Origin: Thermoanaerobaculia bacterium
Lineage (GTDB): Bacteria > Acidobacteriota > Thermoanaerobaculia > Multivoradales > JAIOJS01
Direction: 5' to 3'
Assembly: GCA_019911795.1 (NCBI GenBank)
Contig: JAIOJS010000312.1
Coordinates: forward strand, 3,864 to 67,863
DNA: 64,000 bases
The notes under the pieces are model-generated. The model had not been told where the DNA came from and did no database searches. It saw nothing but the letters and a program-made list of their open reading frames with translations. Every line of letters starts with the position of its first letter. The first letter of the stretch is position 1. Shown in pieces: positions 1-44,126 of this stretch. Made by a program: the position numbers and the translations under genes.

Positions 1-266
1 GGGAGCTTCTCGAGCCGCTCGGCGGTTTGGCGGTTCTGGTCGAGGACCCAGGCCATCGCTCGTTCGCCGTCTATCTCCTCGAGCCAGAGGTAGGGGTCCT
101 GTATATCCTCGATGCCATCCTTCGGAGTCATGATCTTCTCCTCTCCGGTGGTTGCCACGGTCGGCGAGTCCTGTGCGACGGCGCTTTCCGGCGATCCGAT
201 GAGGGCCGCAAAGGTAGCGAGGGACAGGAGGGTGAGGGAGGGAAGGTACTTGGTCTTGTGTATCAT
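1..266 (-). CDS. Prolyl oligopeptidase (S9A) family, N-terminal fragment; the gene continues beyond the left edge of the window
   Basis: The reverse-strand reading frame starts with ATG at the complement of 264-266. Translation [32 protein letters not shown]... is a signal peptide, followed by the [22 protein letters not shown] motif typical of the N-terminus of prolyl endopeptidase and oligopeptidase B. It is absent from the ORF track because no stop codon lies inside the window. Confidence 0.45.
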
Positions 267-428
267 CAGGGTTCTCCGGTGGACGTTCTCGAGTTAGCGA
301 TCCTAGCGGATCGCTACGCCGGTTCGCGACGAACGACCGATGTCCTCCGAGGCATAGCCAACAAATACGACCCAACGACGACCGAACGATCGGATTCAAT
401 GCAGTCCGAGAATCTCTCAGGAGCCATC

Positions 429-944
429 ATGTCTAACCCAACTGCCGTCTTCGAAACCACTCTCGGTACCTTTGAGGCCGAGGTCCTCTTGGACTCCATG
501 CCGGTCACCGCCGGAAACTTCATCTCCCTTGCCAAGAGTGGTTTCTACGACGGTCTCCACTTCCATCGCGTCATCAAGGGCTTTATGTGCCAGTTCGGTT
601 GTCCCCACTCGAAGGATCCGTCGAGCCCCCAGGCGGGGACGGGGGGACCTCCACACGGAACGATCGCCGACGAGCACCCGGCCGATGCCCAGTTCTCCAA
701 CGAAGTAGGTACCCTGTCGATGGCCAACACCGGTCGCCCCAACTCGGGCGGGTCTCAGTTCTTCATCAATACCGCACACAACCACTATCTGGACTTCTTC
801 TCGCCGGGCCCCTCCAAGCATCCCGTTTTCGCGCGAATCACGAAGGGTATGGACATCATCGAAGCCATCGAGTCGACACCTACCGGTGCGGGCGACCGAC
901 CGAAGACTCCGGTGAAGATGATCTCGGTAACGATCAAGGACTAA
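429..944 (+). CDS. Peptidyl-prolyl cis-trans isomerase, cyclophilin type
   Basis: [57 protein letters not shown]...[20 protein letters not shown] are cyclophilin signatures. I moved the start from the 27-nt ORF to the internal ATG at 429, which gives the usual ~170 aa length. Confidence 0.85.
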
Positions 945-1099
945 GAAAGCGATCGAGAATCAAGTGACGCGAGGCCCCAATACGGCAATCCCGTACAGGC
1001 CGAACTGGCCGTTCCCTGTGTGCCGTTTCACTCAGCGTTGCGTGGTCGCGTGTTAGGCTCGCTCGAGATCTTGGGCTTGCTCACTTCGGAGGTCGGAAC

Positions 1100-3850
1100 A
1101 TGAGTCGGAACCGAATCCACTACCTAGCCTCGCGGTGCACGCTATTGGCTCTCCTCGGGGGGCTCTCGACCACGGCACTATGGGGCTATGAGTTGGTCTT
1201 CACGCCGCCCGACCCGAGCGTCTCCGAGGGCGCTGGCTCGTTACCAGTGCAGGTTACTCTGGTCGGCTGCTCCAGTCCGTCTAGCGACGTGACGATCGGG
1301 GTTAGTACGATCGGAATCGATGCGACTCAGGGGATGGATTTCAATCCACCCTCGCAGACGTTCCTGGTCCTTGGAGAGTCATCGGCTAGCGAAGTATTGA
1401 ACCTACCGATCCTCCAGGACGGATTGATCGAAGGGGACGAGACCTTCGAGATCCTCCTGGATGCTTCCAATGGTTTCGGTCTTGATTGCAACGGGAACGC
1501 GACCGATCCGAGTTCGAACTTCTTTCAAACCCTGGTCACCATCGTCGACGACGATGTGTCGACGTCACCGCCGACGATCTCGATCGGTGACGTGACGGTG
1601 GTGGAAGGGAACAACGGGACGACCGACGCTGTTTTCGACGTCGAACTTTCGGCTCCTTGGAGCGTACCCCTCTTCGCCATCGCGTCCACCCGTGACGGCA
1701 GCGCCCAAGCGGAATCGGATTATCTGCCCAACAGTGAGCTCTTGGCGTTTGCGGCGGGTCAAACCCATGGGACCTTTAGGGTTGCCATCTTCGGCGACCA
1801 AACGGTCGAGCCGGACGAGGACTTCTTCGTCGATCTCTCGGGGCTGGACGGACCTCTCCCCGGCGATCTCGAAGGGCGGGGAGTCATCGTCAACGACGAT
1901 GAAGGCGGGCCACCGCCACCGTCCGGGAGCCCCGAGCTTCGAATCAACAACACCAACCTTCTCGAAGGCAATGCAGGAGATCGTGACGCAACCTTCGTCG
2001 TCTCCCTCGATCGGGCGGCTCCCAACGGGGTCACGGTGGGCTACCGAACCGAGAACGGCTCGGCTCGAGCTGGCTTCGACTATGTAGCGACGAGCGGTTT
2101 CCTCTCCTTTGGACCCAACGATCTGAGCCGTACCCTCAGTGTGGCGGTGATTGGCGAGACCGTAGTAGAAAACGACGAAACCTTCTTCGTCGTGCTCGAG
2201 GGGCCGAACGGAGCGGTGATCGTCGATGGGCGAGGTCGCGGCACGATCCGCAACGACGACGAGGAGGTATCCGACGCCGAGATCTCGATTCGCGGCAACG
2301 GCGAGCTCACCGCCCGACCGGGCAGTGATGTGAGCTTCGAGGTTCTCGTTACCCAGAACGGTGCGCCCGCGCCGGAGGTCGTTGTGACCTGGACTCTTTC
2401 CGGTGACGCGACCCTGGTGGGCGGAGCCGGTTCCACTTCGGGCAGCGATGGTGTGGCCACCAAGACGGTGCGTCTCGGCGCGGAGAGTGGCGCGGTATCG
2501 GTCGTCGCCACCTTGCCGGGGGGAGCGTCCGCTACGTTCTCTATTCAGGTCCTTCGGCGCCTCGGCGATCTCTTCGAGGATCGACCCGCGGAACGCTCGG
2601 TCGCCGAGACGCTGGACGAGGCCTGCTCCTCCAGTCAGGGTTTGAACAGTCTCTGTCGCTACCTCGGTGGACTCGACGACGAGAACGCGCGGGCGGCCAT
2701 CTCGGAGTTGACGCTAAGAGAGGCGGCCTCGATGGGGACGGTTTCCCTGCTCGGAGCCCATGGCCAGCTGTCCAACGTTGCCAGCCATCTCTCGTCGGTA
2801 CGTCGTTCGGGACAGATCGGTGGCAGTCAGGTCGCTCTGGGTTTGGGGGATCACTCGTGGGAGCCGACGGCTCTGTGGCGCGCGGCCACCGGGCGTGATC
2901 GAAGTGGCCAGCTTCCTGGATTGGAGAGCGCGCTGAGTTTGGTTCCTATGGAGCCCCTGTCCCCACTCTCCGATGACGAGAGTGAACTGGACGAGCCGAC
3001 GCGCGGAGACGTTTTCATCAGCGGACGACTCTCGACGGGAGATCGTGCCGAGACCTCTCTCGAGAGCGGCTTCGACTTCGACACCCTGGGAATGACCTTG
3101 GGATACGACTACCGAGTTTCCCCGGGGATGGTCGTGGGCTTCGCCCTCGGCTACCTCGACACCTCGACCGATTTCAGCCGCGACGGTGGATCGCTCGATG
3201 TCGACGGCTACAGCCTGACTGGCTTCCTCACTCGCTACGGCAGGCACGCCTATCTCGACCTGGTCGGCAGTTGGGGCTCGAACGACTACTCGTTGACCCG
3301 GAACATCGACCTTCCCGTACCCTTCGAGGGGGCGACTCGGTATACCGCACAGGGCGATCCCAGTGGTGATCAGCTGGCCGTCGATCTGGCGGTAGGGGCA
3401 GAATGGGGAGGCGCCGCGACCTTTGGCCTTTTCGGTGGAGTCAGCTGGGTCGACGGGAGCATCGACGCATACTCCGAGTCCGGTGGAGGGGCAACCGCCC
3501 TCACTCTCGAAGAGCAATCGGTTGAGTCACTCCTCGCGGAGGCGGGGGTCGAACTCTCCTATGCGGCAAGTTTCTCCTGGGGTGTCCTACTGCCGCAGCT
3601 CCGGGTGTCCTACCTGCATGAAGCTCAGGACGACGCTCGTCTGATCCGTGGTCGGTTTTCGCTCGATCAGCAAGCGCATGAGTTCGTCATCCCTACCGAG
3701 GTGCCGGACCGTGACTACCTGAGTGTCGGCGCCGGGTTTACCGCGACTTTCGCCCGCGGGCGGTCCTTCTACCTCTTCTGGGAGAGTGATCTCGAGCGCG
3801 ACGACTTGGAGGCCGATCACATCTCGGGAGGCTTCCGCATCGAGCTGTGA
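1100..3850 (+). CDS. Autotransporter-type outer-membrane protein with a Calx-beta repeat passenger domain
   Basis: GGAGG-like ribosome-binding site before the ATG. N-terminal signal peptide. At least three Calx-beta-like repeats (DETFEILLD, DEDFFVDLSG, DETFFVVLEG, each followed by a D-rich ...VNDDE/VDDD segment). An Ig-like segment follows. The C-terminal ~270 aa look like a classical autotransporter beta-domain (GYDYRVSPGMVVGFALGY...YSLTGFL...ends GGFRIEL). Confidence 0.6.
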   Translation: MSRNRIHYLASRCTLLALLGGLSTTALWGYELVFTPPDPSVSEGAGSLPVQVTLVGCSSPSSDVTIGVSTIGIDATQGMDFNPPSQTFLVLGESSASEVLNLPILQDGLIEGDETFEILLDASNGFGLDCNGNATDPSSNFFQTLVTIVDDDVSTSPPTISIGDVTVVEGNNGTTDAVFDVELSAPWSVPLFAIASTRDGSAQAESDYLPNSELLAFAAGQTHGTFRVAIFGDQTVEPDEDFFVDLSGLDGPLPGDLEGRGVIVNDDEGGPPPPSGSPELRINNTNLLEGNAGDRDATFVVSLDRAAPNGVTVGYRTENGSARAGFDYVATSGFLSFGPNDLSRTLSVAVIGETVVENDETFFVVLEGPNGAVIVDGRGRGTIRNDDEEVSDAEISIRGNGELTARPGSDVSFEVLVTQNGAPAPEVVVTWTLSGDATLVGGAGSTSGSDGVATKTVRLGAESGAVSVVATLPGGASATFSIQVLRRLGDLFEDRPAERSVAETLDEACSSSQGLNSLCRYLGGLDDENARAAISELTLREAASMGTVSLLGAHGQLSNVASHLSSVRRSGQIGGSQVALGLGDHSWEPTALWRAATGRDRSGQLPGLESALSLVPMEPLSPLSDDESELDEPTRGDVFISGRLSTGDRAETSLESGFDFDTLGMTLGYDYRVSPGMVVGFALGYLDTSTDFSRDGGSLDVDGYSLTGFLTRYGRHAYLDLVGSWGSNDYSLTRNIDLPVPFEGATRYTAQGDPSGDQLAVDLAVGAEWGGAATFGLFGGVSWVDGSIDAYSESGGGATALTLEEQSVESLLAEAGVELSYAASFSWGVLLPQLRVSYLHEAQDDARLIRGRFSLDQQAHEFVIPTEVPDRDYLSVGAGFTATFARGRSFYLFWESDLERDDLEADHISGGFRIEL

Positions 3851-5808
3851 GTACCCGGGCGTTTCGCGACACCTACGAGGTCCTCGCCAAGATTGGCGAG
3901 GGCGGGATGGGGGCGATCTACAAGGTTCGCCACCGCCACCTCGACCAGCACCGCGTGATCAAGATCATGCGGCCGCATGTCTCGGGAGACGATGACTTCG
4001 AAGCCCGCTTCTTGCGCGAGGCCCGCCTCGAAGCCGAACTGCGCCACCCCAACATCGCGCAACTCTACGAGTTCGAGGTCGCCCCCGAGGGGTCCGCTTA
4101 CATCGTCATGGAGTTCATCGACGGGGTCACTCTCCGTCAGATCCTCGACGTAGCGGGGCCACCATCGCTGCCGTTTACCCTCTTTCTCGCCGACCAGGGG
4201 CTCGAAGCCCTCGCCTACCTTCATCGGAGGGGTTTCGTTCATCGCGACATCTCCCCCGACAACATCATGTTGGGAAGGGATACCGAAGGTCACCCGGTGG
4301 TGAAGGTGATCGATCTCGGCATCGCCAAGAAGACCGAAGAGTCGGACGACCGTCAGATTACTCGCACCGGTACCTTCATCGGTAAGGTCCAGTACGCGTC
4401 GCCGGAACAGTTCGGCAACACGCCGATCGACAGTCGCAGCGATCTCTACTCCTTCGGCATCGTTCTCTATGAAATGCTCACCGGGCTTTATCCGATCGAG
4501 GGTCACGACACCAATTCCTTGATCGGCGGTCACCTCTTCAAGCCGCCGGTGCCGTTCTCCCAGAGCGACCCTCGGGACGAGGTTCCGGAAGAGCTACGGA
4601 GTGCGGTCTTACGGAGCCTCTCGAAGACTCGAGAGGAGCGTTTCGATGGGGCCACGGAATTTCGCGAGGCACTCGCTGCCGTAGACCATAGGGAAGGCGA
4701 CAATGTCGAAGAGACGACTCGGCTCATCGGACTCTGTCAGACCGATCCCGAGACGGCGGCGCCCGGCGAGGATCTCGATATCTTCGGCACCGAAGAGACT
4801 CGGCTGCGCTCGGCGCGGATGCAACTCGAGACGTCGAGCACCACCGTGCTGCCTGGACCGATGGATCCCACCGTTTCGCTGGGGCCGCCGCCGTCGACGG
4901 GGATCCCCCGCTGGGCGCGCCTCGCCGCACCGCTTGCAGTGCTGCTTCTGCTTGCGACGATCTTCGTCGTGCTGCGCCAACAGAGAGTTGTCCCCGAGCC
5001 CGGTGGCCCCGAGGTCGTCGAGGACATCTTGCCGCGGCCCCTGCCCGCCGACCTCCACTTCGGTCGGTACTACGCCCTCGTCATTGGCAACAATGACTAT
5101 CGATCTCTGCCGCGGCTACGAACCGCGGTTGCCGATGCGGGGGCCGTTGGTGAGGTCCTGGCGGAGCGGTACGGCTTCGAGGTGACCACTCTCTACGACG
5201 GTACCCGCCGGCAGATCTACGAGTATCTCGAGGAGGTCGCGGCCAAGGTGGGCCCTGAGGACAGCCTACTGCTTTACTACGCAGGGCACGGGGCCCTCTA
5301 CACCGATAGGAGTCTGTACTGGCAGCCGGTCGATGCCGACCCCGATTCCACCGTCAACTGGCTATCCACCGAGGACGTGAGCGATTTGCTCCGTGAAGTC
5401 ACCGCCCGCAACGTCCTCGTCATCGCCGATTCGTGCTACGCCGGCGCCCTGGCCGGTGAACAGAGACCTCGTCCGCCTCCGACCGTCGACCGCTTGACCT
5501 TCGTCCGCAAGCAGTTGGAGAAGACGTCGCGGCTCGCCTTGACGTCCGGCGGGTTCTCACCCGTTGTCGATGCCGGCGCGGGAGGCACCCACTCAGTCTT
5601 TGCCAAGGCGCTCCTCGAACAGTTGGCGAACAATGAGATCGTTCTCGATGGGGGGCAACTCTACGACCATCTGGTCGATCCGGTAGAGCAGGGCGCGGCC
5701 AGTTTGGACGTCGTACAGCGTCCGGTGTACGCTCCTTTGAGTAGCGCCGGAGACCAAGGCGGGGAATTCTTCTTCGTACCGACCACGCTTAGGGAGGCGA
5801 ACTCATGA
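3847..5808 (+). CDS. Ser/Thr protein kinase fused through one transmembrane helix to a caspase-like (peptidase C14, orthocaspase) domain
   Basis: GTG start overlaps the upstream stop (GTGA). Hanks kinase motifs are present: IGEGGMGAIYKV (glycine loop), VIKI (lysine), HRDISPDNIML (catalytic loop), DLGIAK (DFG variant), SPEQ. The TM helix is WARLAAPLAVLLLLATIFVVL. The C14 domain is YALVIGNNDY...LLLYYAGHG (His)...NVLVIADSCYAG (Cys). Confidence 0.75.
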   Translation: MSTRAFRDTYEVLAKIGEGGMGAIYKVRHRHLDQHRVIKIMRPHVSGDDDFEARFLREARLEAELRHPNIAQLYEFEVAPEGSAYIVMEFIDGVTLRQILDVAGPPSLPFTLFLADQGLEALAYLHRRGFVHRDISPDNIMLGRDTEGHPVVKVIDLGIAKKTEESDDRQITRTGTFIGKVQYASPEQFGNTPIDSRSDLYSFGIVLYEMLTGLYPIEGHDTNSLIGGHLFKPPVPFSQSDPRDEVPEELRSAVLRSLSKTREERFDGATEFREALAAVDHREGDNVEETTRLIGLCQTDPETAAPGEDLDIFGTEETRLRSARMQLETSSTTVLPGPMDPTVSLGPPPSTGIPRWARLAAPLAVLLLLATIFVVLRQQRVVPEPGGPEVVEDILPRPLPADLHFGRYYALVIGNNDYRSLPRLRTAVADAGAVGEVLAERYGFEVTTLYDGTRRQIYEYLEEVAAKVGPEDSLLLYYAGHGALYTDRSLYWQPVDADPDSTVNWLSTEDVSDLLREVTARNVLVIADSCYAGALAGEQRPRPPPTVDRLTFVRKQLEKTSRLALTSGGFSPVVDAGAGGTHSVFAKALLEQLANNEIVLDGGQLYDHLVDPVEQGAASLDVVQRPVYAPLSSAGDQGGEFFFVPTTLREANS

Positions 5809-7499
5809 GCCAGCCGAAGTCGAAAACACAGGGCGGAGTCGTAGACTCTGCTTACTATTCACTTGTGCGTTCTCTCGGAGTCGTTACCGTAGTGGCGACC
5901 CTTGGCCTCGCCTCCACCTCAGCGGCAGAGGCCTTTTCGCCTCCGATCCCGGCCAAGGGTGACAGCGAAGTCGGACAGGCGGAGGACTTCCTCGTCGTCG
6001 ACTGCCTACTGCCGGGGAAGGTGCGACGCTTGGGGCGTCGCCAGACCTACCTGTCGGCTCGTCGCCCCCTGCGTACGACCGCGATCGACTGTCGGATCCG
6101 TGGTGGTGAGTACACCGCTTTCGATCGTGCGACCTACGAGTCTTCGATGCAGGTCTGGCTGGGCGGAGCGCGCGAAGGTGAGGCGGAGGCGCAGTTCTAC
6201 GTGGCCCAGATCTTCGAAAAGGGACTCGGTCGGGATCCTGACTACGCGGCCGCTGCCGATTGGTACCGCAAGGCGGCAGAGCAGGGTCATTCGGGAGCGC
6301 AGACCAGCCTTGGCTTCCTCTACGAGGTTGGCCTTGGAGTCGAGCGCGACCCGGTGGCGGCATTGAGTTGGTACCGCAAGGCGTCCGGACTCGATGAGGA
6401 ACTCGTCGTTCTCGAAGGAGCCGAGTACCGGGAACTACTGGAACGTCGGCAAGAGCTCGAGGAGCGCAATCGGGAACTCGAGGACCTGGAGCGTCGCCTA
6501 CGTGAGACCGAGAAGACGTTGCAGCAGAGTCGCGTCGAGCAGCAGCAGGATGATGTCGCCGAGGCTCGCCTTCAGGAGACCTTGAAGAAACTCCAGACGG
6601 AGCTCGAGGGACGTCGCCAAGATGTTTCGAGGTTGGAGTCCGAAGTCACTCGCCTGGCCGCCACCGAGGGGGCGTCCGTGGCCCCGGGGCCGGAGCATAA
6701 CGAGCCGGCCGGAGCCGTAGACTTCGGGCCTTACCATGCGCTGGTTATCGGAAACGGCGATTACCGCTCGCTTCCGGCGGTTGGCTCGGCTCCCGGCGAT
6801 GCTCGACGTCTCGCCGACCTGCTTCGGGACCGTTACGGATTCGAGGTTCGATTGCTCCTCGATGCGACGCGCTATCAGATCCTCGAGGCGCTCAACCGTC
6901 TGCGCGAGGATCTCACCGAGAAGGACAACCTGGTGCTCTTCTACGCCGGCCACAGTGAGGAGGACGAGGCGGGCTCGCGAGGCTGGTGGAAGCCGGTTGA
7001 CGCCGATCCCACCAGTCGGGCCAATTGGATCTCCCATCGAGTACTCGCAGATCACTTGGAAGTCGTGCCGGCGAAGCACGTGTTGGTGCTCGCCGAGGCT
7101 GCCTATGCCGCCACCCTGACTCGTTCGTCGATACCTCAGCTGCCGGTGGGTATGAGCCCGGCAAAGCGGCAGGAGTATCTGCGTGAGATGTCCGCGCGAC
7201 GGACCCGCCTGGTGTTGGCGTCCGGCGAGCGCAACACTTCGACGGGCGGCAGCGAGGGGGCGACGGCGCGCTTCTCCGACGCCCTCTTTGCCGTCCTGGA
7301 GAAGAACGAAGGAGTGCTTGGCGCCTCCTCGATGTACCGCGAACTCAACAAGTCACTCGCGGACTCGGGCGAGCCGGTCGAGTTTGCACCGATTCGCTGG
7401 TCGCGGCACGAAGGTGGTTCGGACTTCTTTTTCGTGGCCAAGACTCGTGTCAGTCAGGAGTCGCTGGCTTCGGAGCCAGTGGCCCAGCCTGGGAAGTAG
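5805..7499 (+). CDS. Secreted protein with Sel1 repeats, a coiled coil and a caspase-like domain that lacks the catalytic Cys (pseudo-orthocaspase)
   Basis: ATG overlaps the upstream stop (ATGA). Signal peptide VVTVVATLGLASTSAAEA. Sel1-like repeats (AQFYVAQIFEKGLGRDPDYAAAADWYRKAAEQGHSGAQTSLGFLYEVGLGVERD...WYRKAS). A long E/R/L-rich heptad region follows. The C14-like domain is YHALVIGNGDY...LVLFYAGHSEE (His retained)...HVLVLAEAAYAA (Ala at the Cys position). Confidence 0.65.
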   Translation: MSQPKSKTQGGVVDSAYYSLVRSLGVVTVVATLGLASTSAAEAFSPPIPAKGDSEVGQAEDFLVVDCLLPGKVRRLGRRQTYLSARRPLRTTAIDCRIRGGEYTAFDRATYESSMQVWLGGAREGEAEAQFYVAQIFEKGLGRDPDYAAAADWYRKAAEQGHSGAQTSLGFLYEVGLGVERDPVAALSWYRKASGLDEELVVLEGAEYRELLERRQELEERNRELEDLERRLRETEKTLQQSRVEQQQDDVAEARLQETLKKLQTELEGRRQDVSRLESEVTRLAATEGASVAPGPEHNEPAGAVDFGPYHALVIGNGDYRSLPAVGSAPGDARRLADLLRDRYGFEVRLLLDATRYQILEALNRLREDLTEKDNLVLFYAGHSEEDEAGSRGWWKPVDADPTSRANWISHRVLADHLEVVPAKHVLVLAEAAYAATLTRSSIPQLPVGMSPAKRQEYLREMSARRTRLVLASGERNTSTGGSEGATARFSDALFAVLEKNEGVLGASSMYRELNKSLADSGEPVEFAPIRWSRHEGGSDFFFVAKTRVSQESLASEPVAQPGK

Positions 7500-7576
7500 A
7501 TCGCAAGAGGTCTCCACGCTTCTTCGGGCGGTTTGCCTTAGATCATTCTAGAGTCAAACCACCAGGGGCCAGGCGG

Positions 7577-9526
7577 TCATGTTTTGGCTCGACGGCCACG
7601 CAACATGTGACGGTCGGCGTACGAGGCGATCTCGACCAACTGCTCGAGGGGTCCCTCGAGGCGAGGGTCGAGGGCGCTGCGTAGAACCACCTCCTTGGCA
7701 AACAGGAGGCTGAGGTAGCGCAACTTGACGGCAGGACGATCGTCAATATCCCGAAACTCCGTATGGCCGCTGTTGACCTCCCACCGCCCATCGACCAGGC
7801 GGGACCTCCAGGTCGCGCCTGGATCATCGATCAGGGTGGGTTCGGGGATACCGTCGCGGGAGGGGTGGTGCATCGGTTCGTCGAAGACCTCGATCGTCGC
7901 TACCGCCGACGCCTCTTCCGACTCGGTCCAGCCGAAGACGTTGAGCGTCGCTTCGCCCGCGACCTCGCCTGCGATGATCTGAACCTGCGGTCCCGCGGGA
8001 TCGACTTCGCTCAACTGGGCCGTCGCACCGACTAGGCGCCAGCGGAACGACACGTCGCCGTCGACCTCCCTCCCACTGCGGTCGACGGCTCGAGCGCGAA
8101 CGAGACGGCGCCCCCCCAGACGTAATCGCAGAGGAGACGGAGGTAGGGTGAGAGCGTGCAGCGGCCCCGGCGGGAAGGGGATGGTGGGTGAGATCGAGGG
8201 GCCAGAACTGGACAGAGATTCGGAATCCCGCTCCTGGTCCTGGACGTCGGTGCTCATCGGCACCGCTACCCCGGGTGCACTGCCGCTGCCGACCACGCCA
8301 TCTTCGTCGGTCCGGCCCGAGCCGAGGGTGGGATCATCGACCGGCAGGAGCCGATAACGCGGTCGTTCGCGAAAGAAGCCTTGGAAGGCACGCTGAAGAT
8401 CCTTGACGATTCTTTGATCGAGTTCGCGGCTTCGTCGTTCCTGGTCCTCTTCGAGAATCTCCATCAGTCTCGGCTCGAGCTCGCGGAGTCGATGAGCGAA
8501 GGTCTCCGCCGCCGCGTCGGGAACGACCCCTCGACGGCTGCCGGGGGGAATGCGCAGGCCGGGAAAGTCGATCATTCCGGTGAGGCGTGGGTGGGTCCAG
8601 GGTGAGTGAGCAAGATCAAGGGCTGACAGCTCGGCGAAGCTATCGCTGGCCAGAGTCCCGCCCGCGTAGAGCGCCACGTGGCTGGGACCCTCTTCGGTGC
8701 TCGGAGAGCGCAGGTAGAGTTCCAACTGCACGTCAGGGAAGCCCGCGATCGGCAAGCGGTGAAACTGCACGATCGGCTCCCCGAGGAAACGCCGTGGTTG
8801 TACCGGCAGGATCTTCTCCGCCCGTCCCCTCGACATGCGATCCTCGACGACCAGCTCCACGTCGCGATCGAGCAGCTGCCCCCGCAACTCGTCGGCGAGG
8901 AAGTCCGCCGCACGCCGCCCCACCAGTGCGGACTTCGCTTGGGGATGGAGGTCGACGACGACCACCTCGGTCCAACGGTCGTCGAACAGGTTGCGGCGTC
9001 GAATCTTCTCTATCGTGAACTCAGGACGGTCGCGGTGCAGTACGAGGCGGTGAGGGTGCTGTCCGGCAACGGCGCTGCGCATCTCGAGGATCTGGCCCAG
9101 GCTCCAGAAGCCGAGCAGGCCGATGCCGTACTGACCCTGCGTCATCAGGGTCAAGCGCTCCTCGGGGGAGAGGCGCCGCTTGCGGCTATGGCCGATATTG
9201 GTGGCGATGTACCGTAGTGCTTCCAGCCGATCCAACTCGGGCAGGACACCCTCGCCATCATCCAGGATCTTCAGGCAGGGGATGCCGCGCTCGCGGATCC
9301 GCGTCACCCGGATCCGCTGGGCCCCGGCGTCGAGGCTGTTCTGCACCAGCTCGGCGAGCGCCTTGCGAGGATCAGGCTGCGAGAGTGCGAGCCAGCGGAT
9401 CAGCTCGAAGGGATCGTGAACCTTGACTCGTCCCTTCACCACGGGAGAGGTACCCTTGGAGCGACGGCGGCTCCCCTTGGATCTCGACTTGGCCTCGGGG
9501 AAGAGTTCGTGATTGTCAGACATCAT
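7577..9526 (-). CDS. GHKL (Bergerat-fold) ATPase-domain protein with an Ig-like (Big_2-type) domain and a basic N-terminal tail
   Basis: N-box ELVQNSLDAGAQRIRV, G1 box LKILDDGEGV and G2 box GQYGIGLLGFWSLG resemble the Hsp90/MORC/MutL type. The N-terminus is basic (SRSKGSRRRSKG). The C-terminal half has an Ig-like beta segment (DVSFRWRLVGATAQLSEVDPAGPQVQIIAGEVAGEATLNVFG). There is no histidine-kinase H-box. Confidence 0.55.
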   Translation of the reverse strand: MMSDNHELFPEAKSRSKGSRRRSKGTSPVVKGRVKVHDPFELIRWLALSQPDPRKALAELVQNSLDAGAQRIRVTRIRERGIPCLKILDDGEGVLPELDRLEALRYIATNIGHSRKRRLSPEERLTLMTQGQYGIGLLGFWSLGQILEMRSAVAGQHPHRLVLHRDRPEFTIEKIRRRNLFDDRWTEVVVVDLHPQAKSALVGRRAADFLADELRGQLLDRDVELVVEDRMSRGRAEKILPVQPRRFLGEPIVQFHRLPIAGFPDVQLELYLRSPSTEEGPSHVALYAGGTLASDSFAELSALDLAHSPWTHPRLTGMIDFPGLRIPPGSRRGVVPDAAAETFAHRLRELEPRLMEILEEDQERRSRELDQRIVKDLQRAFQGFFRERPRYRLLPVDDPTLGSGRTDEDGVVGSGSAPGVAVPMSTDVQDQERDSESLSSSGPSISPTIPFPPGPLHALTLPPSPLRLRLGGRRLVRARAVDRSGREVDGDVSFRWRLVGATAQLSEVDPAGPQVQIIAGEVAGEATLNVFGWTESEEASAVATIEVFDEPMHHPSRDGIPEPTLIDDPGATWRSRLVDGRWEVNSGHTEFRDIDDRPAVKLRYLSLLFAKEVVLRSALDPRLEGPLEQLVEIASYADRHMLRGRRAKT

Positions 9527-9572
9527 TCTCAGACATCTCAGCGCCCCGCTAGCCGAAGGCGACAGAAGGCCA

Positions 9573-11120
9573 CTAGCGTCGCTTCTTGCGTCGAATCGTC
9601 AACTCCTTGAGCGCCTCGATCGGTCGGCGGTCAGGCGCCAGCAGGCGACTGGCCAGTCTCAGGTGGTCCTCGGCGTCCTCCCACTGTCCGTCGTCGCGGT
9701 CGAGGACCCCGAGGTAGTAGAACGCGAGTCCACACTTGCCGTCGATCCGGACCGCCTCTCGAATCTCATTGCGCGAGGCTTCCGCATACTGGGTCGGTGA
9801 GAGGCGGTAGCGACAGAACGCGGCCTCCGCTCGGTAGAGAGCATTCTGGGGGTCGACATCCGCGGCGAACTGCAAAAACTCGAGGGCTCGACGAAAGTTC
9901 TCGTTCTGCAGAAACTCGAGTCCCTTGCGATACTGGACGGCAGGATCGAGGAGATCGGTCGCGATCATGGGCTGGGTAGGACGGTTGGCGCGATCCCGAC
10001 GCGAGTTGCGTCTTCGCTCGAGAAGGATGCCGCGGCTCTCGGTATGGACGAGCTCGGCGTAAGCCTCCGCGCCCGCGAGAAAGAGGGCTCGCGCTTTCTC
10101 CGAAAGGTCACCCGGCGCTTGTGCCTCGAGGACCCATGGCGAGAACCGTCGCGCGTGTCGAAGGTAGGCGTGTTCGATCGTCTTCAGATCGGCCTCTTCG
10201 GACACTTCCAGAAGGTCGAAGGAATCCTTGCGTCGAAACGAAAGATAGGCTTCGAGGACTCGTCGCTTGAGACCCTCCAGCTCGCTCGCGTTCATCGCAT
10301 CCATCGCCGGTGGATGGATCAACACCTCGGTGGCCTGAACCGCCGAACGGACCCTACCCACCGCCGCCCCCGCCATGCCGCTTTGCGGCGCGAGAGAGCC
10401 GAGGAGGGCCAGCGCGTAGACCACCCGTCCCAGCGTATCCGAAGGAACGCCGCTGGTCAGGGCCAACTGATCGAGGGGTTGCGGTGCCGTGCGGGCGGCG
10501 GCGAGGACCCGCTTGGCGACGCCACCGATGATCAGGTCTGGCTCGTCGAACGGCGGCGCTGGATTGACCACCAGGGGCTCCCCGAGGAGAGGCTGAATTC
10601 CTTCCATGACGCTTTTCGACGGCGTGAGTTTGAGAATGCCGGTGAGGACGAGCTGTGGAGTACGGACTTCGAGGGTCGTTTCCGGCTTCTCGGTCACGTC
10701 GCGAAGTTCGAAATCCCCTTCCGACCAGGTGAAGGGGTCCAGAAGCTTGCGTGCGAGGTTCTGACGCAGCTGCCGATAGAGTTCGACCGCGTCGAGGATC
10801 TCCCTTTCCATCAGGATCTCACCGAGTGGAATCTCACGCTTGAGCGATTCTGGCAGGGCACTCTGTAGGGTCTGGTCATCGATCAGTCCGGCCGAGACCA
10901 GAAACCGTCCCAACGTCTCGTGGACCAGGTTGGAACGGCAGTCGACCGCGACTCCGTCCAGAAAGACGATCTGCTTCTCGACCGGCTTGCGGCTCAGGTG
11001 TAGCATGCCGGTCGTTCGGCTTCGTGCGAGTGCCGTGAGCAACACGGGATAGGGGATTTCCGCGATGTGGCCACGGCGCAGAGCCGAGATCTCAGCGAAG
11101 CGATCTACCGAAGGGATCAT
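9573..11120 (-). CDS. DUF4388-domain protein with a J-domain-like segment (no HPD motif) and a TPR-like C-terminus
   Basis: The N-terminus (FAEISALRRGHIAEIPYPVLLTALARSRTTGMLHLSRKPVEKQIVFLDGVAV) matches the DUF4388 pattern. The internal helix pair DLKTIEHAYLRHARRFSP resembles DnaJ helix II but has FSP where HPD would be. TPR-like helices occupy the C-terminus (ALEFLQFAADVDPQNALYRAEAAF...). Confidence 0.4.
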   Translation of the reverse strand: MIPSVDRFAEISALRRGHIAEIPYPVLLTALARSRTTGMLHLSRKPVEKQIVFLDGVAVDCRSNLVHETLGRFLVSAGLIDDQTLQSALPESLKREIPLGEILMEREILDAVELYRQLRQNLARKLLDPFTWSEGDFELRDVTEKPETTLEVRTPQLVLTGILKLTPSKSVMEGIQPLLGEPLVVNPAPPFDEPDLIIGGVAKRVLAAARTAPQPLDQLALTSGVPSDTLGRVVYALALLGSLAPQSGMAGAAVGRVRSAVQATEVLIHPPAMDAMNASELEGLKRRVLEAYLSFRRKDSFDLLEVSEEADLKTIEHAYLRHARRFSPWVLEAQAPGDLSEKARALFLAGAEAYAELVHTESRGILLERRRNSRRDRANRPTQPMIATDLLDPAVQYRKGLEFLQNENFRRALEFLQFAADVDPQNALYRAEAAFCRYRLSPTQYAEASRNEIREAVRIDGKCGLAFYYLGVLDRDDGQWEDAEDHLRLASRLLAPDRRPIEALKELTIRRKKRR

Positions 11121-11157: not shown

Positions 11158-12159
11158 CTACTCGTCAGGGGTTTCGGTCAACAGTTCCGTCTCGGGAAAG
11201 AGTTCTTCGAGCAGGACCGTGGCGTAACTCCCGGGTGGGAGGAGTACGCTAACCAGGACGACCCCGGGCTCGATGGTCGCTACTTCCAGGTCTCGAACCA
11301 CGATACGAAGAGGGCGACGTCCTCCCGACATATGGTGTCGGCGGAGCCTGGGCAGTTGGTAGATCCACGGCAGGTCGAGGTCGTGAGCGGCAGCCTTCTC
11401 CAGTTCCAGCGCCTTGCCCTTGGGGGCCCGCATCTTGTGACCGAGGATCGGACCGGTGGGACTCAGTTCGAGTTGATCGGCTAGTCCTTGATGGTCGGCG
11501 GCCCGGAGAACCGGGCGAAGGCCCTGCGTCTCGTGGTGCCAAGCGATGTCGCCATTCAGGAGAACGCCTAGGTCCGGTCCACGTCGCCGGAGGACCTCGT
11601 CGAAGAGAAGTGATTGCAGGGCGGAGAGGAACAGCCCCTCGCGGCGTCGGGGTCCCGACATGCGCTCACCGGCGAGGACGCGACGGCCGAGATCCGCGTT
11701 GTCGCCGTGTCGTCCGTAGCGCTGCCGTCCGAAGCGATTCGGCATCCCGTGGCGATGCATCGTCTCGACGCGGGTTGCGATCTGTTCGGGCCTGTCCTCG
11801 ACTTCGCGCACGGTGATCCGGAAGCGGTTTCCTTCGAGATCGCCGGGACGCAATGGATGGCGGTGTCTAAAGGCCTCCAGGACGGTCACCCCCTCGATAT
11901 CGAGTGCGGTTGCCTGATCGGGATCGAGGTCTGGGACCGACATCCACTGGCGGGTCACCGCTCGGCGATCCTTCCGCCCCGCGTAGCCCACCGCCCGCTC
12001 TTCGAGGCCGAGCCGCTCCGCGATCTCGGTAGCGACATCCTCCGAGTTGCGAAGACGCTTCTCGATGTGGAGAAGGGTGAACGGACCCTCCCCATGCGGT
12101 GGGTAGAGCGGAACTTCGTCAACGAGGAAGTCCTCGGGGGTCTGTCGGATCGTTGCCAT
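11158..12159 (-). CDS. truD: tRNA pseudouridine(13) synthase TruD
   Basis: The N-terminus RQTPEDFLVDEVPLY matches the TruD 'PEDFxVxE' signature. PNRFGRQRYG matches the 'PNYFGxQRFG' motif. Catalytic-region conservation is present and the length is ~333 aa. Confidence 0.75.
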   Translation of the reverse strand: MATIRQTPEDFLVDEVPLYPPHGEGPFTLLHIEKRLRNSEDVATEIAERLGLEERAVGYAGRKDRRAVTRQWMSVPDLDPDQATALDIEGVTVLEAFRHRHPLRPGDLEGNRFRITVREVEDRPEQIATRVETMHRHGMPNRFGRQRYGRHGDNADLGRRVLAGERMSGPRRREGLFLSALQSLLFDEVLRRRGPDLGVLLNGDIAWHHETQGLRPVLRAADHQGLADQLELSPTGPILGHKMRAPKGKALELEKAAAHDLDLPWIYQLPRLRRHHMSGGRRPLRIVVRDLEVATIEPGVVLVSVLLPPGSYATVLLEELFPETELLTETPDE

Positions 12160-23582: not shown

Positions 23583-24404
23583 ATGGAAGCGAGTAGTCCC
23601 CTCAAGAAAACGACCCCGGCAATCGATGCTGCCCAGAGTCCGCCATCTGGTGTGGTTTTCCTCGCTGCCGGCCGAGGGACTCGCTTGTCGGAGCTCACTG
23701 AAACGACCCATAAGGCTCTCCTTCCAATAGGCGGACAGCCGGTTCTTCAGTATGCCGTCGATCGTGTCCTTGATGCTGGCGTGGAAGATGTCGTCGTTGT
23801 CACTGGGAGCAAAGCGGCGACGCTGGAGGAGTTTCTGCGAGCTAGGTACTCGGACCGAGTCACGCTCGTCTACAACGATCGATTTGCGACCGACACCAAT
23901 ATTCTTTCCACGGAGATCGGTGTCGGTGCCCTGAGACGGCCTGAAGAAGGCTATATGATCATCGAAGCGGACCTGGTGATCGAGCGCGAGGGCTGGTCGC
24001 GAGTTTTGGAGGTTGGTTCTGGGAGTGACTCCTTCTGGGTGACACAGAGCGTCTACGGAGTGAACCGAACCGGGGGAGCCGTGCGAACTGACGTTGCTGG
24101 GAATGTCCGCGACATCGTCTACTCGAACTCCTACAACCCTGCCTACGACGGATGGCGGAAGCTGATGGGTGTTCTCTTCGTGGGACCTAATCAAGTTGCG
24201 AACGATCGACGGCTTAGGCGGGAAGCGATCAGGCGCTCCATTGGACAGTACTACATGATGCCTTGGGTCGAGAACCTTGGCAGTCTTCCCTGCATGGCAA
24301 GGGACCTAGGTGACCTTTTCGCACGTACCTTCAACGATGCCGTCACCTACCAGCAGACAGCGGACGAGGTCAGCGAGTTTGAGAGGCTTGGAATCGCATG
24401 GTAG
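23583..24404 (+). CDS. Sugar/alcohol-phosphate nucleotidyltransferase (LicC-like cytidylyltransferase family)
   Basis: VVFLAAGRGTRLSELTETTHKALLPIGGQPVLQYAVDRVLDAGVEDVVVVTG is the N-terminal NTP_transferase motif (G-x-G-T-R). Confidence 0.6.
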   Translation: MEASSPLKKTTPAIDAAQSPPSGVVFLAAGRGTRLSELTETTHKALLPIGGQPVLQYAVDRVLDAGVEDVVVVTGSKAATLEEFLRARYSDRVTLVYNDRFATDTNILSTEIGVGALRRPEEGYMIIEADLVIEREGWSRVLEVGSGSDSFWVTQSVYGVNRTGGAVRTDVAGNVRDIVYSNSYNPAYDGWRKLMGVLFVGPNQVANDRRLRREAIRRSIGQYYMMPWVENLGSLPCMARDLGDLFARTFNDAVTYQQTADEVSEFERLGIAW

Positions 24405-26674: not shown

Positions 26675-26698
26675 AGCGGTTATCCGACTGGAGGGTCC

Positions 26699-30080: not shown

Positions 30081-30296
30081 GACGACAAGGTAGAGAAGAC
30101 TTCCGACACTGCAGTTGATCCACAGGACGAAGCAGGCATCGGCAAAGACGATGAGTCCAAAGAGCGCACGTCGGCGGTAGGGCTGCCCGGCGACCAGGGA
30201 AGAGCGAGCACCGCGCCGGAGCGCCGCAATCAGTAGGACGGCATTGAAGACAAGGATGATGAGAGTGGGGATGTTTGACGGCTCCGCGTGGTTTAC

Positions 30297-43997: not shown

Positions 43998-44117
43998 GGG
44001 GGCTCGCGGATTCCCATCGAGTTCCGAGGCAATTTGCGGCGGTGTCGGAACTGAGACACCGAATGTGCTTTTGCGACGTAGTATCGATGATAGCAGCCCC
44101 TCTAGGCGTTGCCCTTT

Positions 44118-44126
44118 GGGGGGGGG
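44118..44126. repeat. G9 (C9 on the coding strand) homopolymer tract upstream of or within the 5' region of the kinase-TPR gene
   Basis: Seen directly: ccctttGGGGGGGGGccagcc. Confidence 0.5.

Follow-up and report, generated by a model that had tools for sequence, protein, structure and literature searches.

A caspase-like domain that has lost its catalytic cysteine is encoded by the gene adjoining that of an intact one in the window, i.e., the whole 64,000-nucleotide stretch of DNA that was analysed. The protein carrying the dead domain, ORF B, is a real and selectively maintained pseudo-protease, predicted to be exported. It represents a widespread protein type, here without the Cys, in which an N-terminal beta domain precedes Sel1 repeats, a long helix and finally the caspase-like part. 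The live domain belongs to ORF A, a receptor-type Ser/Thr kinase. The arrangement of these two genes with the gene for an autotransporter suggests a cell-envelope signalling module that has not been described previously.

Results

The second caspase-like domain lacks the nucleophile

ORF A and ORF B are neighbours in the ORF list, and BLASTP aligns their C14 domains (residues 405–647 of ORF A and 307–547 of ORF B) with 39% identity (E 5e-41) and without gaps around both catalytic motifs. The first-pass annotation had paired three motifs by eye: YALVIGNNDY with YHALVIGNGDY, LLLYYAGHG with LVLFYAGHSEE, and NVLVIADSCYAG with HVLVLAEAAYAA. All three pairs are present letter for letter. Both domains pass the PF00656 cut-off of 21.4 bits, ORF A with 73 and ORF B with 57 bits. 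The C14 domain spans positions 3–213 of the 233-position Pfam C14 profile; in active members its C-terminal half holds a loop with the pattern SGG..PV.D....HS. The interval named by the annotation (6730–7230) falls into the caspase-like domain but covers only its N-terminal two thirds, the whole domain running from about 6732 to 7439.

The catalytic columns were assigned via a profile built from 26 active family members. This profile places the motifs YYAGHG and DSC onto LLYYAGHG and LLDMC of MALT1 (E ~1e-12), which anchors the two catalytic columns on H415 and C464. ORF B retains the histidine, followed by Ser384 instead of glycine; in the nucleophile region Asp, Ser and Cys of ORF A are replaced by Glu431, Ala432 and Ala433, and Ala433 occupies the column of MALT1 C464. 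The proposed retention of His with Ala-Ala at the site of the nucleophile was right. The His-Cys dyad of active C14 proteases, located at the ends of strands β3 and β4, is present in ORF A and incomplete in ORF B. ORF B keeps D332, has Glu431 at the second S1 column and lacks the downstream conserved loop. A sequencing error is excluded, since the stretch VLAEAAYAATL is identical in the three homologues P0001–P0003, which are 90%, 77% and 74% identical to ORF B.

Pseudo-orthocaspases have been defined as prokaryotic p20 homologues with at least one substituted dyad residue (PMC6426788), and ORF B is one by this definition. For these domains "orthocaspase" is a loose label, because the paracaspase MALT1 is the closest among the solved structures.

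Table 1. Location of the features of the apparent operon in the window; amino acid positions refer to the respective protein.
Feature	Position (nt)	Strand	Evidence and remarks
Autotransporter gene, 916 aa	1100..3850	+	Pfam PF03797 (E 1e-48), PF03160 (E 5e-38), PF02369
ORF A, receptor-type Ser/Thr kinase with intact caspase-like outer domain, 653 aa	3847..5808	+	Pfam, hydropathy, motifs
ORF A Pkinase, aa 10-266	3874-4644	+	Pfam; motifs VIK37, HRD132, DLG156
ORF A TM helix, ~aa 355-379	4909-4983	+	Hydropathy
ORF A Peptidase_C14, aa 409-614	5071-5688	+	Pfam, E 3e-20
ORF A Asp430	5134-5136	+	Aligns with MALT1 S1-pocket D365
ORF A catalytic His481 (CAC), within YYAGHG	5287..5289	+	Profile-aligned to MALT1 H415
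ORF A Asp528	5428-5430	+	Aligns with MALT1 S1-pocket D462
ORF A catalytic Cys530 (TGC), within IADSCYAG	5434..5436	+	Profile-aligned to MALT1 C464
ORF A/ORF B junction	5791..5808	+	Sequence read; Shine-Dalgarno AGGGAGG 5791-5797, 7-nt spacer, ATGA 5805-5808
ORF B, predicted exported Sel1/coiled-coil/pseudo-caspase protein, 564 aa	5805..7499	+	ORF list, Pfam, AlphaFold
ORF B predicted signal sequence, aa 1-42	5805..5930	+	Hydropathy and inspection
ORF B family-specific N-terminal beta domain, aa 55-110	5967..6134	+	Motifs DCLLPG...CRIRGGEY
ORF B Cys67	6003-6005	+	One of two invariant Cys of the N-terminal domain
ORF B Cys96	6090-6092	+	The other invariant Cys of the N-terminal domain
ORF B Sel1 repeats, ~aa 111-194	6135..6386	+	PF08238, E 1.5e-17
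ORF B single 77-residue helix, aa 205-281	6417..6647	+	DSSP on model; read as coiled-coil spacer
ORF B pseudo-caspase domain, aa 310-545, caspase-hemoglobinase fold	6732..7439	+	PF00656 E 3e-15 (aa 311-520), model, Foldseek
ORF B His383 (CAC), right after strand β3, then Ser384	6951..6953	+	Alignment, model, codon
ORF B Glu431-Ala432-Ala433 (GAG GCT GCC), replacing Asp-Ser-Cys	7095..7103	+	Alignment, model, codons
ORF B Ala433 (GCC), catalytic Cys column, right after strand β4 (aa 425-431)	7101..7103	+	Alignment, model, codon

ORF B has a caspase fold and is predicted to be exported

The AlphaFold model of ORF B has a mean pLDDT of 75, which rises to approximately 90 over residues 310–545. Foldseek with this model found MALT1 first (E 2e-11), followed by metacaspases and GSU0716; the domain is indeed caspase-like, as had been claimed. 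The Sel1 part matches Sel1-repeat proteins of the PDB with E-values down to 3e-78, and its helices have pLDDT values of about 90–97. The long helix is followed by a disordered linker (residues 282–309), with pLDDT below 50 at residues 280–302.

The N-terminus of ORF B contains a hydrophobic core (residues 19–38) and then ...ASTSAAEA followed by F, without a lipobox cysteine; gammaproteobacterial homologues have lipoboxes. According to this signal peptide, called from hydropathy and by eye, and to the order of kinase, TM helix and caspase domain in ORF A, ORF B is predicted to be exported and both caspase domains to be extracytoplasmic. The first-pass annotation mentions neither the extracytoplasmic location nor the fusion of the active domain to a receptor-type Ser/Thr kinase, whose outer part it forms.

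The Cys-less clade is monophyletic and constrained

The loss of the cysteine is common to the orthologues: in the Acidobacteriota Sel1-caspase clade none of 124 sequences has Cys at the nucleophile column, where V (48) and A (39) are the commonest residues, ahead of S (15), L (7), H (6), I (4) and others. An NJ tree shows the clade as monophyletic. The histidine is retained in 89% of its members, the glycine following it in only 51%. Several columns with 100% conservation among the 91 active sequences have loosened in the Cys-less ones (in ORF A numbering: D430 71%, G482 51%, D528 81%, S529 41%), and the SGG..PV.D....HS loop is mostly deleted. We found no conserved Cys inside the ORF B caspase domain; the only invariant cysteines of the protein are C67 and C96.

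More than 100 full-length ORF B orthologues were found, and 47 columns are invariant over 37 orthologues. The mean pairwise divergence of the dead domain (0.521) is the same as that of the live partner (0.525) in the same 14 genomes. Along the protein, the N-terminal and Sel1 parts are conserved with 55–67% identity versus 40–50% for the caspase part. Judged from these alignments, the loss of the cysteine is old and selected and the dead domain is still under constraint.

ORF A keeps the dyad and acidic residues at the columns of the MALT1 S1 pocket

ORF A is 100% identical to P0121, "MAG: Thermoanaerobaculia bacterium, protein kinase". His and Cys are kept in all 121 kinase-caspases (120 listed homologues and ORF A). 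D430 and D528, which align with D365 and D462 of MALT1, are invariant (100%) within the KIN and ACT groups. Acidic residues at these S1-pocket columns predict cleavage after Arg/Lys, and the caspase-like domain of ORF A is, on this sequence criterion, probably Arg/Lys-specific.

A role in anti-phage defence was considered and rejected. For ORF A, PADLOC reported only kinase-domain matches of a generic kind (kinase models of PD-T4-6 and mad6). ORF B matched a "caspase" model with 26 bits and, over its coiled coil, JetC with 16 bits; the neighbouring genes matched nothing. With the NCBIfam model NF047832 ("caspase, EACC1-associated type"; caspase_w_EACC1) both proteins remained below the curated cut-off of 140 bits (ORF A 90.1, ORF B 46.7).

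The kinase-caspase gene is paired with the Cys-less Sel1 gene

The apparent operon begins with the autotransporter gene. The encoded protein has a signal peptide, a passenger with three Calx-beta domains, one Big_1 domain and, at its C-terminus, an autotransporter beta-barrel. The stop of this gene overlaps the start of ORF A in the sequence GTGA (3847–3850, sequence read), and the start of ORF B overlaps the stop of ORF A in ATGA (5805–5808). As the first-pass annotation had stated, the active and the inactive partner are encoded in adjacent genes; these overlap by 4 nt, and the pairing recurs at 17 loci.

In all 17 loci in which a kinase-caspase has a Sel1 neighbour, the two genes adjoin and the Sel1 protein is Cys-less; 14 loci come from the genome scan and three of three were reached starting from the kinase. 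Adjacency is kept throughout although three gene orders occur: kinase then Sel1, Sel1 then kinase with an overlap of 1–4 bp, and convergent. One genome contains both genes 4 Mb apart. The kinase and Sel1 trees show mirrored subclades (Mantel r = 0.93, p = 2e-4). In the genome scan caspase-bearing kinases had a Cys-less Sel1 partner in 14 cases and an intact one in none; kinases without caspase domain had a Cys-less partner in six cases (five, if L022 is left out, where the kinase is cut by the contig end) and an intact one in 31. The paired loci share one ancestor, and therefore the 2×2 association and the mirrored trees reflect one event followed by vertical descent and not independent replication; neither the Mantel nor the Fisher test was taken as independent support.

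A linked active caspase is not required for the loss of the cysteine, as is evident from five loci at which a Cys-less Sel1 gene neighbours a kinase without caspase domain (L011, L043, L047, L053, L071), and from the Acidobacteriota subclade L003–L006 and L012, in which no kinase was found within the flanks of up to 7 kb. In Proteobacteria the cysteine was lost independently in three lineages (L038/L043/L053; L047; L071) with no caspase-bearing kinase nearby. Other proteobacterial relatives keep the cysteine and are paired with kinases lacking a caspase domain, sometimes beside T6SS genes. At L028 a kinase of the same orthogroup (53% identical) has no caspase domain and lies beside a Sel1 protein that keeps His and Cys. 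Cultured carriers of the active version include Nitrococcus mobilis, Halomonas salifodinae, Zhongshania, Steroidobacter, Povalibacter and Marinagarivorans.

The most constant neighbour of the Sel1-caspase gene, above the kinase, is the autotransporter gene. Its family (f2) is found at 49 of 81 loci and additionally at L082–L087, and a homologue adjoins the Sel1-caspase gene in nearly all Acidobacteriota and many proteobacterial loci. Neither this partner nor the Cys-keeping proteobacterial relatives were part of the first-pass annotation.

In several proteobacterial relatives tssM, tagF-PP2C and a kinase lie beside the module, and the gene set of the T6SS phosphorylation pathway was found only in the proteobacterial relatives L033, L042, L043, L053, L061, L067 and L082. 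Among the 39 of 45 predicted ORFs of the window that were scanned with Pfam, there were no T6SS, FHA or PP2C genes; the surroundings are housekeeping genes, and a T6SS context for the window was rejected. The convergent genes downstream, HATPase_c_3 (7577–9526), DUF4388 (9573–11120) and TruD (11158–12159), were likewise discarded as members of the module: tblastn detected no homologue of them in any related locus.

Discussion

In Thermoanaerobaculia and related Acidobacteriota, ORF B is inherited together with the autotransporter and with ORF A, a kinase with a single membrane pass. We propose that the autotransporter, ORF B and ORF A might form one envelope module. With its Sel1 and N-terminal domains and its helix of approximately 11 nm, ORF B would connect the autotransporter in the outer membrane with the kinase in the inner membrane, and its dead caspase domain would bind the live one of ORF A. 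Such a contact could be a heterodimer or that of a non-cleaving substrate or ligand adaptor, and it would gate proteolysis at the outer face of the kinase and thereby kinase signalling. We give this proposal an even chance of being correct; the physical interaction, heterodimerisation, the direction of regulation, the substrate and the Arg/Lys specificity are what we infer in it. A heterodimer is plausible from the paralogous origin and the retained fold of the two domains. MALT1 is Arg-specific and activated by dimerisation, and metacaspases and orthocaspases are often monomeric; heterodimerisation is therefore an analogy with MALT1 and caspase-8/cFLIP only.

ORF B could instead be a Sel1-based periplasmic adaptor or chaperone for the autotransporter, with a caspase-like domain that is structural or ligand-binding and for which catalysis is dispensable; the kinase-caspase would then be a parallel component that ORF B does not regulate. 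The autotransporter is present where no kinase was seen (L003–L005, L012, L084) and across phyla, the independent proteobacterial losses occurred without a caspase-bearing kinase nearby, and the N-terminal and Sel1 parts are the best conserved ones. Since the autotransporter gene accompanies the Sel1-caspase gene more consistently than the kinase gene does, the autotransporter may be the main target or partner of ORF B, and the Cys-less loci without a kinase-caspase suggest that the core task of the Sel1 protein may never have required catalysis or a caspase partner. However, among kinase-caspases with a Sel1 neighbour not one partner is intact, the pair stays adjacent in all gene orders, and the constraint on the dead domain equals that on the live one. 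We regard the adaptor function as a possible but rather doubtful alternative.

It is unlikely that ORF B is a substrate or decoy of ORF A, cut in the loop T-R440-S-S or in its Arg-rich N-terminal domain so that a part is released or activated, as cFLIP-L is by caspase-8. R440 is shared by 96% of the Cys-less sequences; its loop (residues 439–441) has pLDDT values under 50 and takes the position of the caspase intersubunit linker. RR and RxR motifs are abundant in the N-terminal domain, and the acidic S1 columns of ORF A predict cleavage after Arg/Lys. But TRSS is also present in the closest active Sel1-caspases (L028, L035, P0101, P0106, P0115, P0117), and the motif was thus rejected as specific for the pseudo-clade. 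Moreover, the Cys-less subclade in which no kinase-caspase is linked retains TRSS as well.

Hydrolysis by another nucleophile, either Ser in place of Cys as in the sister subclade (ADASYVGD) or a different Ser together with His383, is very improbable. The high retention of His, Ser at the Cys column in 15 of 124 sequences and at loci L085–L087, the invariance of S441 in 37 orthologues and the conservation of S508 in 91% of the clade would fit such an activity. ORF B itself, however, has Ala-Ala at the Ser-Cys positions, and the column is as variable as an unconstrained site (V, A, S, L, H, I, E, Q, P, M). The SGG..PV.D....HS loop decays alongside, as do the Asp residues of the S1 pocket and the glycine after His; the domain has no conserved Cys, and S441 lies in a disordered loop common to active relatives. 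A pseudo-specific His425 at the start of β4 was rejected as part of an alternative site since it is located at the end opposite to the former active site. Among the conserved Cys and Ser of the domain, a nucleophile supplied from another position was not found. That ORF B is a decaying, functionless duplicate and the pairing leftover synteny is scarcely credible: the catalytic residue is gone and nearby positions are relaxed, but the conservation effectively refutes decay, with more than 120 intact full-length orthologues in open frames down to about 40% identity, the 47 invariant columns, a divergence rate equal to that of the active partner, overlapping start and stop codons, a strong Shine-Dalgarno sequence and a confident fold prediction.

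Several known systems come close to this one. Cytosolic, Asp-specific caspase-8 is driven by death domains and heterodimerises with the Cys-less cFLIP-L. As there, a Cys-less paralogue is encoded alongside an active protease of the caspase fold; unlike there, both domains are predicted to be extracytoplasmic, the predicted specificity is basic, and a kinase carries the active copy. A dead copy that regulates or scaffolds the live one in the manner of cFLIP, as the first-pass annotation suggested, is an analogy only, with no homology beyond the common fold. MALT1 is the best profile and fold match, with YYAGHG and D-x-C in common; its acidic S1 residues D365 and D462 align with D430 and D528 of ORF A. 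In contrast to MALT1, with which they share only ~20% identity, the proteins studied here are bacterial, predicted to be periplasmic and without death, Ig and CARD-associated domains, and ORF B lacks the Cys.

ORF B is a variant within the already known theme of pseudo-orthocaspases. Like these it has a prokaryotic C14 fold without an intact dyad that is conserved as a clade and presumed to be non-catalytic. In the survey of Klemencic et al. (2019; PMC6426788), Alphaproteobacteria and Cyanobacteria account for 90% of the pseudo-variants, whose dyads are typically of the Tyr-Ser or Tyr-Asn type; a search of the text found Acidobacteria and Sel1 unmentioned. The ORF B clade differs in that it keeps His and loses only Cys (His-Ala, His-Val, His-Ser), and in that the protein, predicted to be exported, combines the domain with Sel1 repeats and a long helix and is coupled to a kinase-fused active caspase and an autotransporter. 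The comparison also took in SyOC of Synechocystis (PMC7889975). Asplund-Samuelsson et al. (2012; PMC3501461) list Sel1 (6%) as one of the four domains most often combined with bacterial caspase homologues, and many of these proteins have an N-terminal helix that is possibly a signal peptide; that pseudo copies might regulate active paralogues was already raised there. The work is a catalogue only, dyad-lacking sequences were dropped in HMM building, and a search of its text gave no passage on kinase-caspase fusions, a link to autotransporters or a Cys-less Sel1 clade.

The logic of an exported protein that binds and controls the periplasmic domain of an inner-membrane kinase is known from ExoR with ChvG/ExoS and from TagQ/TagR and TssW with the T6SS kinase PpkA. 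ExoR is a Sel1-repeat protein whose proteolysis frees the kinase (PMC3460628). None of these has a caspase fold and ChvG is a histidine kinase; it is the system logic that is alike, not the family. The literature searched, including T6SS papers, contains no description of a caspase/Sel1/autotransporter/kinase module, which is weak evidence for novelty as the library was incomplete.

In a wider and more tentative reading, to which we give clearly less than an even chance, autotransporter, Sel1-(pseudo)caspase and Ser/Thr kinase would constitute an unrecognised trans-envelope signalling system in several phyla, in which a Sel1/coiled-coil/caspase-fold protein spanning the periplasm links an outer-membrane beta-barrel to an inner-membrane eukaryotic-like kinase. 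In Proteobacteria it would sometimes feed the T6SS phosphorylation switch; in Thermoanaerobaculia protease activity would have shifted to the kinase, and the old protease would have become a dedicated non-catalytic partner, so that bacteria would have their own extracytoplasmic equivalent of caspase-8/cFLIP.

Bacteria encode many caspase homologues, but a role is known for few of them, and to our knowledge no partner has been assigned to the pseudo-variants, which come mainly from Cyanobacteria and Alphaproteobacteria. The present pair is a natural experiment, in which a dead and a live copy lie side by side and are co-inherited across a clade, the live one wired to a kinase and both predicted to face the periplasm. 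The case bears on whether prokaryotic pseudo-caspases pair with active ones, on whether receptor kinases can employ a caspase-fold protease as their sensory or outer part, and on the role of the recurrent pair of autotransporter and Sel1-caspase, which in some Proteobacteria lies beside a T6SS kinase switch.

Two caspase-like domains in adjacent genes

Two caspase-like (Peptidase_C14) domains are encoded in the last two of three ORFs read from the window sequence, which run in one direction and overlap at their ends. ORF A, the kinase-TM-caspase protein (653 aa), carries a Ser/Thr kinase domain (aa 10-266, motifs VIK37, HRD132 and DLG156), one hydrophobic helix at approximately aa 355-379 and the Peptidase_C14 domain (aa 409-614). 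ORF B, the Sel1/pseudo-caspase protein (564 aa), has a signal-like N-terminus, followed by a small conserved beta domain, Sel1 repeats, a 77-residue helix and the Peptidase_C14 domain (aa 311-520). ORF A is 100% identical to P0121, a homologue from a Thermoanaerobaculia NCBI MAG annotated there only as 'protein kinase'; the closest protein-collection match to ORF B is 90% identical.

The two C14 domains share 39% identity (E 5e-41) and align without gaps near both motifs, pairing YYAGHG and IADSCYAG of ORF A with FYAGHS and LAEAAYAA of ORF B. A profile built from 26 active members of the family places these motifs on LLYYAGHG (H415) and LLDMC (C464) of MALT1, and D430 and D528 of ORF A align with D365 and D462 of MALT1 (MALT1 residue numbers derived from the chain offset in the profile alignment). 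The AlphaFold model of the ORF B caspase-like domain has a pLDDT of approximately 90 and places His383 directly after strand beta3 and Ala433 directly after strand beta4. The top structural matches of this domain are the MALT1 paracaspase, metacaspases and GSU0716. Pairwise alignment, profile comparison with MALT1 and AlphaFold model agree, confirming the by-eye alignment of the first-pass annotation: in ORF B the His is retained and Ala (codon GCC) occupies the nucleophile position. Its placing of putative active and inactive partners in adjacent, coupled genes also holds; the two genes overlap as ATGA, and the pairing recurs in other loci.

Genomic surroundings

The remaining window contains ordinary chromosomal genes (PPIase, TruD, ATP sulfurylase, RND efflux pump, glyoxylate shunt, tricorn-like protease), and a scan of 39 of the 45 predicted window ORFs revealed no T6SS, FHA or PP2C genes. 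The gene convergent with ORF B encodes a protein of 649 aa that starts with a HATPase_c_3 domain (GHKL/MutL-like ATPase; N-terminal) and shows a weak likeness, far under the model cut-off, to a BbrUII/HgiDII-type restriction enzyme model; its adjacency to the module is not conserved in other loci. The window also encodes two DUF4388-containing proteins and another Ser/Thr kinase, which carries TPR repeats; none of the three has homologues in the related loci.

A stretch with a G+C content of 0.57-0.59 (vs approximately 0.63 elsewhere) carries genes for DUF711, methyltransferase, Asp/Glu racemase and glycerophosphotransferase-like proteins and could represent a cell-surface polymer cluster that was acquired. 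Elsewhere, the malate synthase and isocitrate lyase genes of the glyoxylate shunt come after a gene for an XRE-HTH/Peptidase_M78 regulator. The longest ORFs of the two shunt genes overlap by approximately 295 nt, and thus the true isocitrate lyase start probably lies further downstream.

Features of the window and of related loci in other genomes
Location	Feature	Coordinates	Strand	Description
Window	Apparent three-gene operon	1100-7499		
Window	Autotransporter	1100-3850		Three Calx-beta, one Big_1, PF03797 beta-barrel (Pfam)
Window	ORF A	3847-5808		GTG start overlapping autotransporter stop as GTGA
Window	ORF B	5805-7499		ATG start overlapping ORF A stop as ATGA; AGGGAGG 7 nt upstream
Window	Ala433 codon	7101-7103		
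Window	HATPase_c_3 protein	7577-9526	-	
Window	DUF4388 protein	9573-11120	-	TPR matches too, sub-threshold
Window	Low-G+C stretch	24000-32000		
Window	636-aa ORF	28170-30080	-	Inside low-G+C stretch; no Pfam match
Window	TPR kinase	41253-44432	-	
Window	DUF4388 protein	45247-46902	+	
Window	Regulator and glyoxylate-shunt genes	48560-53137		
L033	Active Sel1-caspase lipoprotein module	3-8722		
L033	Alpha/beta-hydrolase-like gene	6068-6961		
L045	Alpha/beta-hydrolase-like gene	5917-6720		
L082	Alpha/beta-hydrolase-like gene	6001-6975		
L085	Alpha/beta-hydrolase-like gene	3654-4427		
L081	Separated kinase-caspase locus	4319-5523, 8001-9941		Transposase_mut fragments and toxin-antitoxin genes beside the kinase-caspase gene

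Age and constraint of the cysteine loss

Orthologues in other genomes share the loss. Among the 120 best of more than 2,000 relatives found with ORF B, the Cys is absent from every full-length orthologue, and DSC is kept only in matches that span 40-61% of the query. A genome scan with one genome per species gave 80 loci; pooled with the protein matches, the caspase-like domains were sorted into three groups. All kinase-linked (n = 14) and all Sel1-linked active domains (n = 77) have the His-Cys dyad. The third group, Sel1-linked Cys-less domains (n = 124), has V, A, S, L, H, I and others in the former Cys column, never C. Residues present in 100% of the 91 active sequences are relaxed in the Cys-less group, namely D430 (71%), the Gly after the His (51%), D528 (81%) and S529 (41%), and the SGG..PV.D....HS loop is mostly deleted. 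No conserved Cys was found in the dead domain. The variable Cys column, the relaxed active-site positions and the lack of a conserved Cys argue against a relocated nucleophile, and the Cys-to-Ala reading therefore stands.

In a neighbour-joining tree, the Cys-less sequences of Acidobacteriota group as a single clade. The dead domain has a mean pairwise divergence of 0.521 across 14 genomes, vs 0.525 for the active partner domain, and 47 columns are invariant across 37 ORF B orthologues. Judged from these sequence comparisons, the dead domain is not decaying despite the Cys loss, and the loss is ancient, concerted and selected.

Pairing of kinase-caspase and Cys-less Sel1 genes

The genome scan shows the kinase-TM-caspase gene next to a Sel1 gene of the Cys-less type in the window as well as in 13 further loci (L001, L002, L007-L010, L013, L015, L016, L019-L021, L026); in L022 the neighbouring kinase is cut off at the contig end. 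The kinase gene precedes the Sel1 gene in the window and L007, follows it with a 1-4 bp overlap in, for example, L013, L016, L021 and L085-L087, and is convergent with it in L001, L002 and L008-L010. Linkage that persists through such rearrangement normally points to a functional tie. For reverse sampling, three kinase-caspase proteins were picked from long contigs, blind to the Sel1 gene; all three loci contain an autotransporter, a Sel1-C14 (His-Ser) and a kinase-C14 (His-Cys) gene, in that order. The dyad is intact in ORF A and in all 120 homologues among the matches listed.

In a 'Candidatus Multivoradales' MAG (L081, 5.2-Mb contig), the kinase-caspase gene lies approximately 4 Mb from the Sel1-pseudocaspase and autotransporter genes, yet the kinase-caspase and Sel1 genes are both retained. 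The Transposase_mut fragments and toxin-antitoxin genes beside the kinase-caspase gene suggest relocation by a mobile element.

In the tree, the kinase-linked domains fall into subclades that match the subclades of the partner Sel1 proteins. The correlation between both sets (Mantel r = 0.93, p = 2e-4) shows long joint vertical inheritance and is no proof of co-adaptation, since it is expected of any two genes inherited vertically.

The type of kinase is associated with the state of the Sel1 protein. Where the neighbouring kinase has a caspase domain, the Sel1 protein is Cys-less in 14 cases and His-Cys in none; where it has no caspase domain, the numbers are 6 and 31. One of the six is the truncated L022, which leaves five (L011, L043, L047, L053, L071). 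The Fisher p of 3e-8 reflects one evolutionary event and is not independent replication. The informative locus L028 (Acidobacteriota) combines a His-Cys Sel1 protein with a kinase that is 53% identical to the ORF A kinase domain and lacks a caspase domain. The simplest history would start from an ancestral module made up of an autotransporter, a catalytically active Sel1-caspase and a kinase; the outer face of the kinase would have gained a caspase domain and the Sel1 protein would have lost catalysis, in either order.

Active relatives in other phyla

The Sel1-caspase architecture, including the N-terminal domain DCLLPG...CRIRGGEY, is also present in Gammaproteobacteria and a small number of other groups, usually with a lipobox and an intact His-Cys. 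In the genome scan, 52 of 78 Sel1-linked domains are His-Cys. Typical neighbours there, as in the active lipoprotein module of L033, are a TM Ser/Thr kinase without caspase domain, an alpha/beta-hydrolase gene and usually a short autotransporter. Six loci (L033, L042, L043, L053, L061, L067) have T6SS genes directly next to the module, namely tssM/icmF and a gene for a tagF-PP2C fusion; in L082 its neighbours are vgrG, DUF2169 and FHA genes. The L083 kinase has an FGE-sulfatase (TagR-like) domain. Among cultured Proteobacteria, Halomonas salifodinae (His-Val by nature) and Nitrococcus mobilis (His-Cys) have the module next to T6SS genes. The proteobacterial module may feed into the T6SS phosphorylation switch as an input so far overlooked; caspase, Sel1 and autotransporter components go unmentioned in a 2026 review of T6SS accessory factors.

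Across phyla, an autotransporter gene is conserved beside the Sel1-caspase gene. In the window its product has a Calx-beta/Big_1 passenger; the proteobacterial protein (approximately 420-510 aa) has a much shorter passenger without Pfam domain. A frequent fourth gene, found in proteobacterial loci, L082 and L085 and absent from the window operon, codes for an alpha/beta-hydrolase-like protein of approximately 260-320 aa with weak Pfam matches, mostly under family cut-offs.

Topology and possible function

The domain order of ORF A (kinase, single TM helix, caspase domain) and the signal-like start of ORF B (...ASTSAAEA|F) lead to the prediction, from hydropathy and inspection only, that both caspase-like domains face the periplasm. 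If straight, the 77-residue helix of ORF B would span approximately 11 nm by our estimate. We propose that ORF B could be a non-catalytic adaptor that would link the outer-membrane autotransporter to the kinase, its dead domain binding the live domain of ORF A. We infer the ORF A-ORF B interaction, as well as the substrate and the direction of control. MALT1, the closest solved relative, is activated by dimerisation, and caspase-8/cFLIP illustrates that a dead paralogue is able to gate a live one. Exported regulators acting via the periplasmic domain of a membrane kinase have precedents in ExoR-ChvG (PMC3460628) and TssW-PpkA (PMC12607579).

The most constant neighbour of the Sel1-caspase gene is the autotransporter. 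It is the only partner close by, within the flank examined, in an Acidobacteriota subclade (L003-L006, L012), and Cys was lost independently in three proteobacterial lineages (L038/L043/L053, L047, L071), with no caspase-bearing kinase seen nearby. ORF B might thus act chiefly with the autotransporter, the caspase fold perhaps always having been mainly a binding module, which we consider possible but unlikely. That ORF B is a substrate or decoy is rather improbable: it is suggested by R440, a conserved residue of a disordered loop, yet active relatives have the TRSS motif too. Residual hydrolase activity of ORF B is very improbable and its neutral decay scarcely credible, both being poorly supported.

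Relation to known caspase homologues

Pseudo-orthocaspases are an established category, comprising 8.6% of bacterial caspase homologues, 90% of them in Alphaproteobacteria and Cyanobacteria (PMC6426788); text searches of this survey for Acidobacteria and for Sel1 gave no matches. Sel1 has been catalogued among the partner domains of bacterial caspase homologues, and possible regulation of active copies by Cys-less ones has already been suggested (PMC3501461). By its dyad substitution in a prokaryotic C14 domain, ORF B is, at the sequence level, a pseudo-orthocaspase, although the 'ortho' vs 'meta' or 'para' label is loose; it belongs to no curated NCBIfam or PADLOC family. The interpretation given in the first-pass annotation is supported as far as sequence goes.

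The survey papers, the T6SS review and targeted searches yielded no description of the Cys-less Sel1 clade, of the kinase-caspase fusion and its pairing with a Cys-less Sel1 protein, or of the autotransporter link and occasional T6SS-gene adjacency of the module. As literature coverage is incomplete, their novelty is probable, not certain. A pair of dead and live caspases is in itself unsurprising in principle. What makes this a well-defined, testable system is its predicted extracytoplasmic location, the tether to a kinase, the conservation of the autotransporter and the reciprocity seen across phyla.
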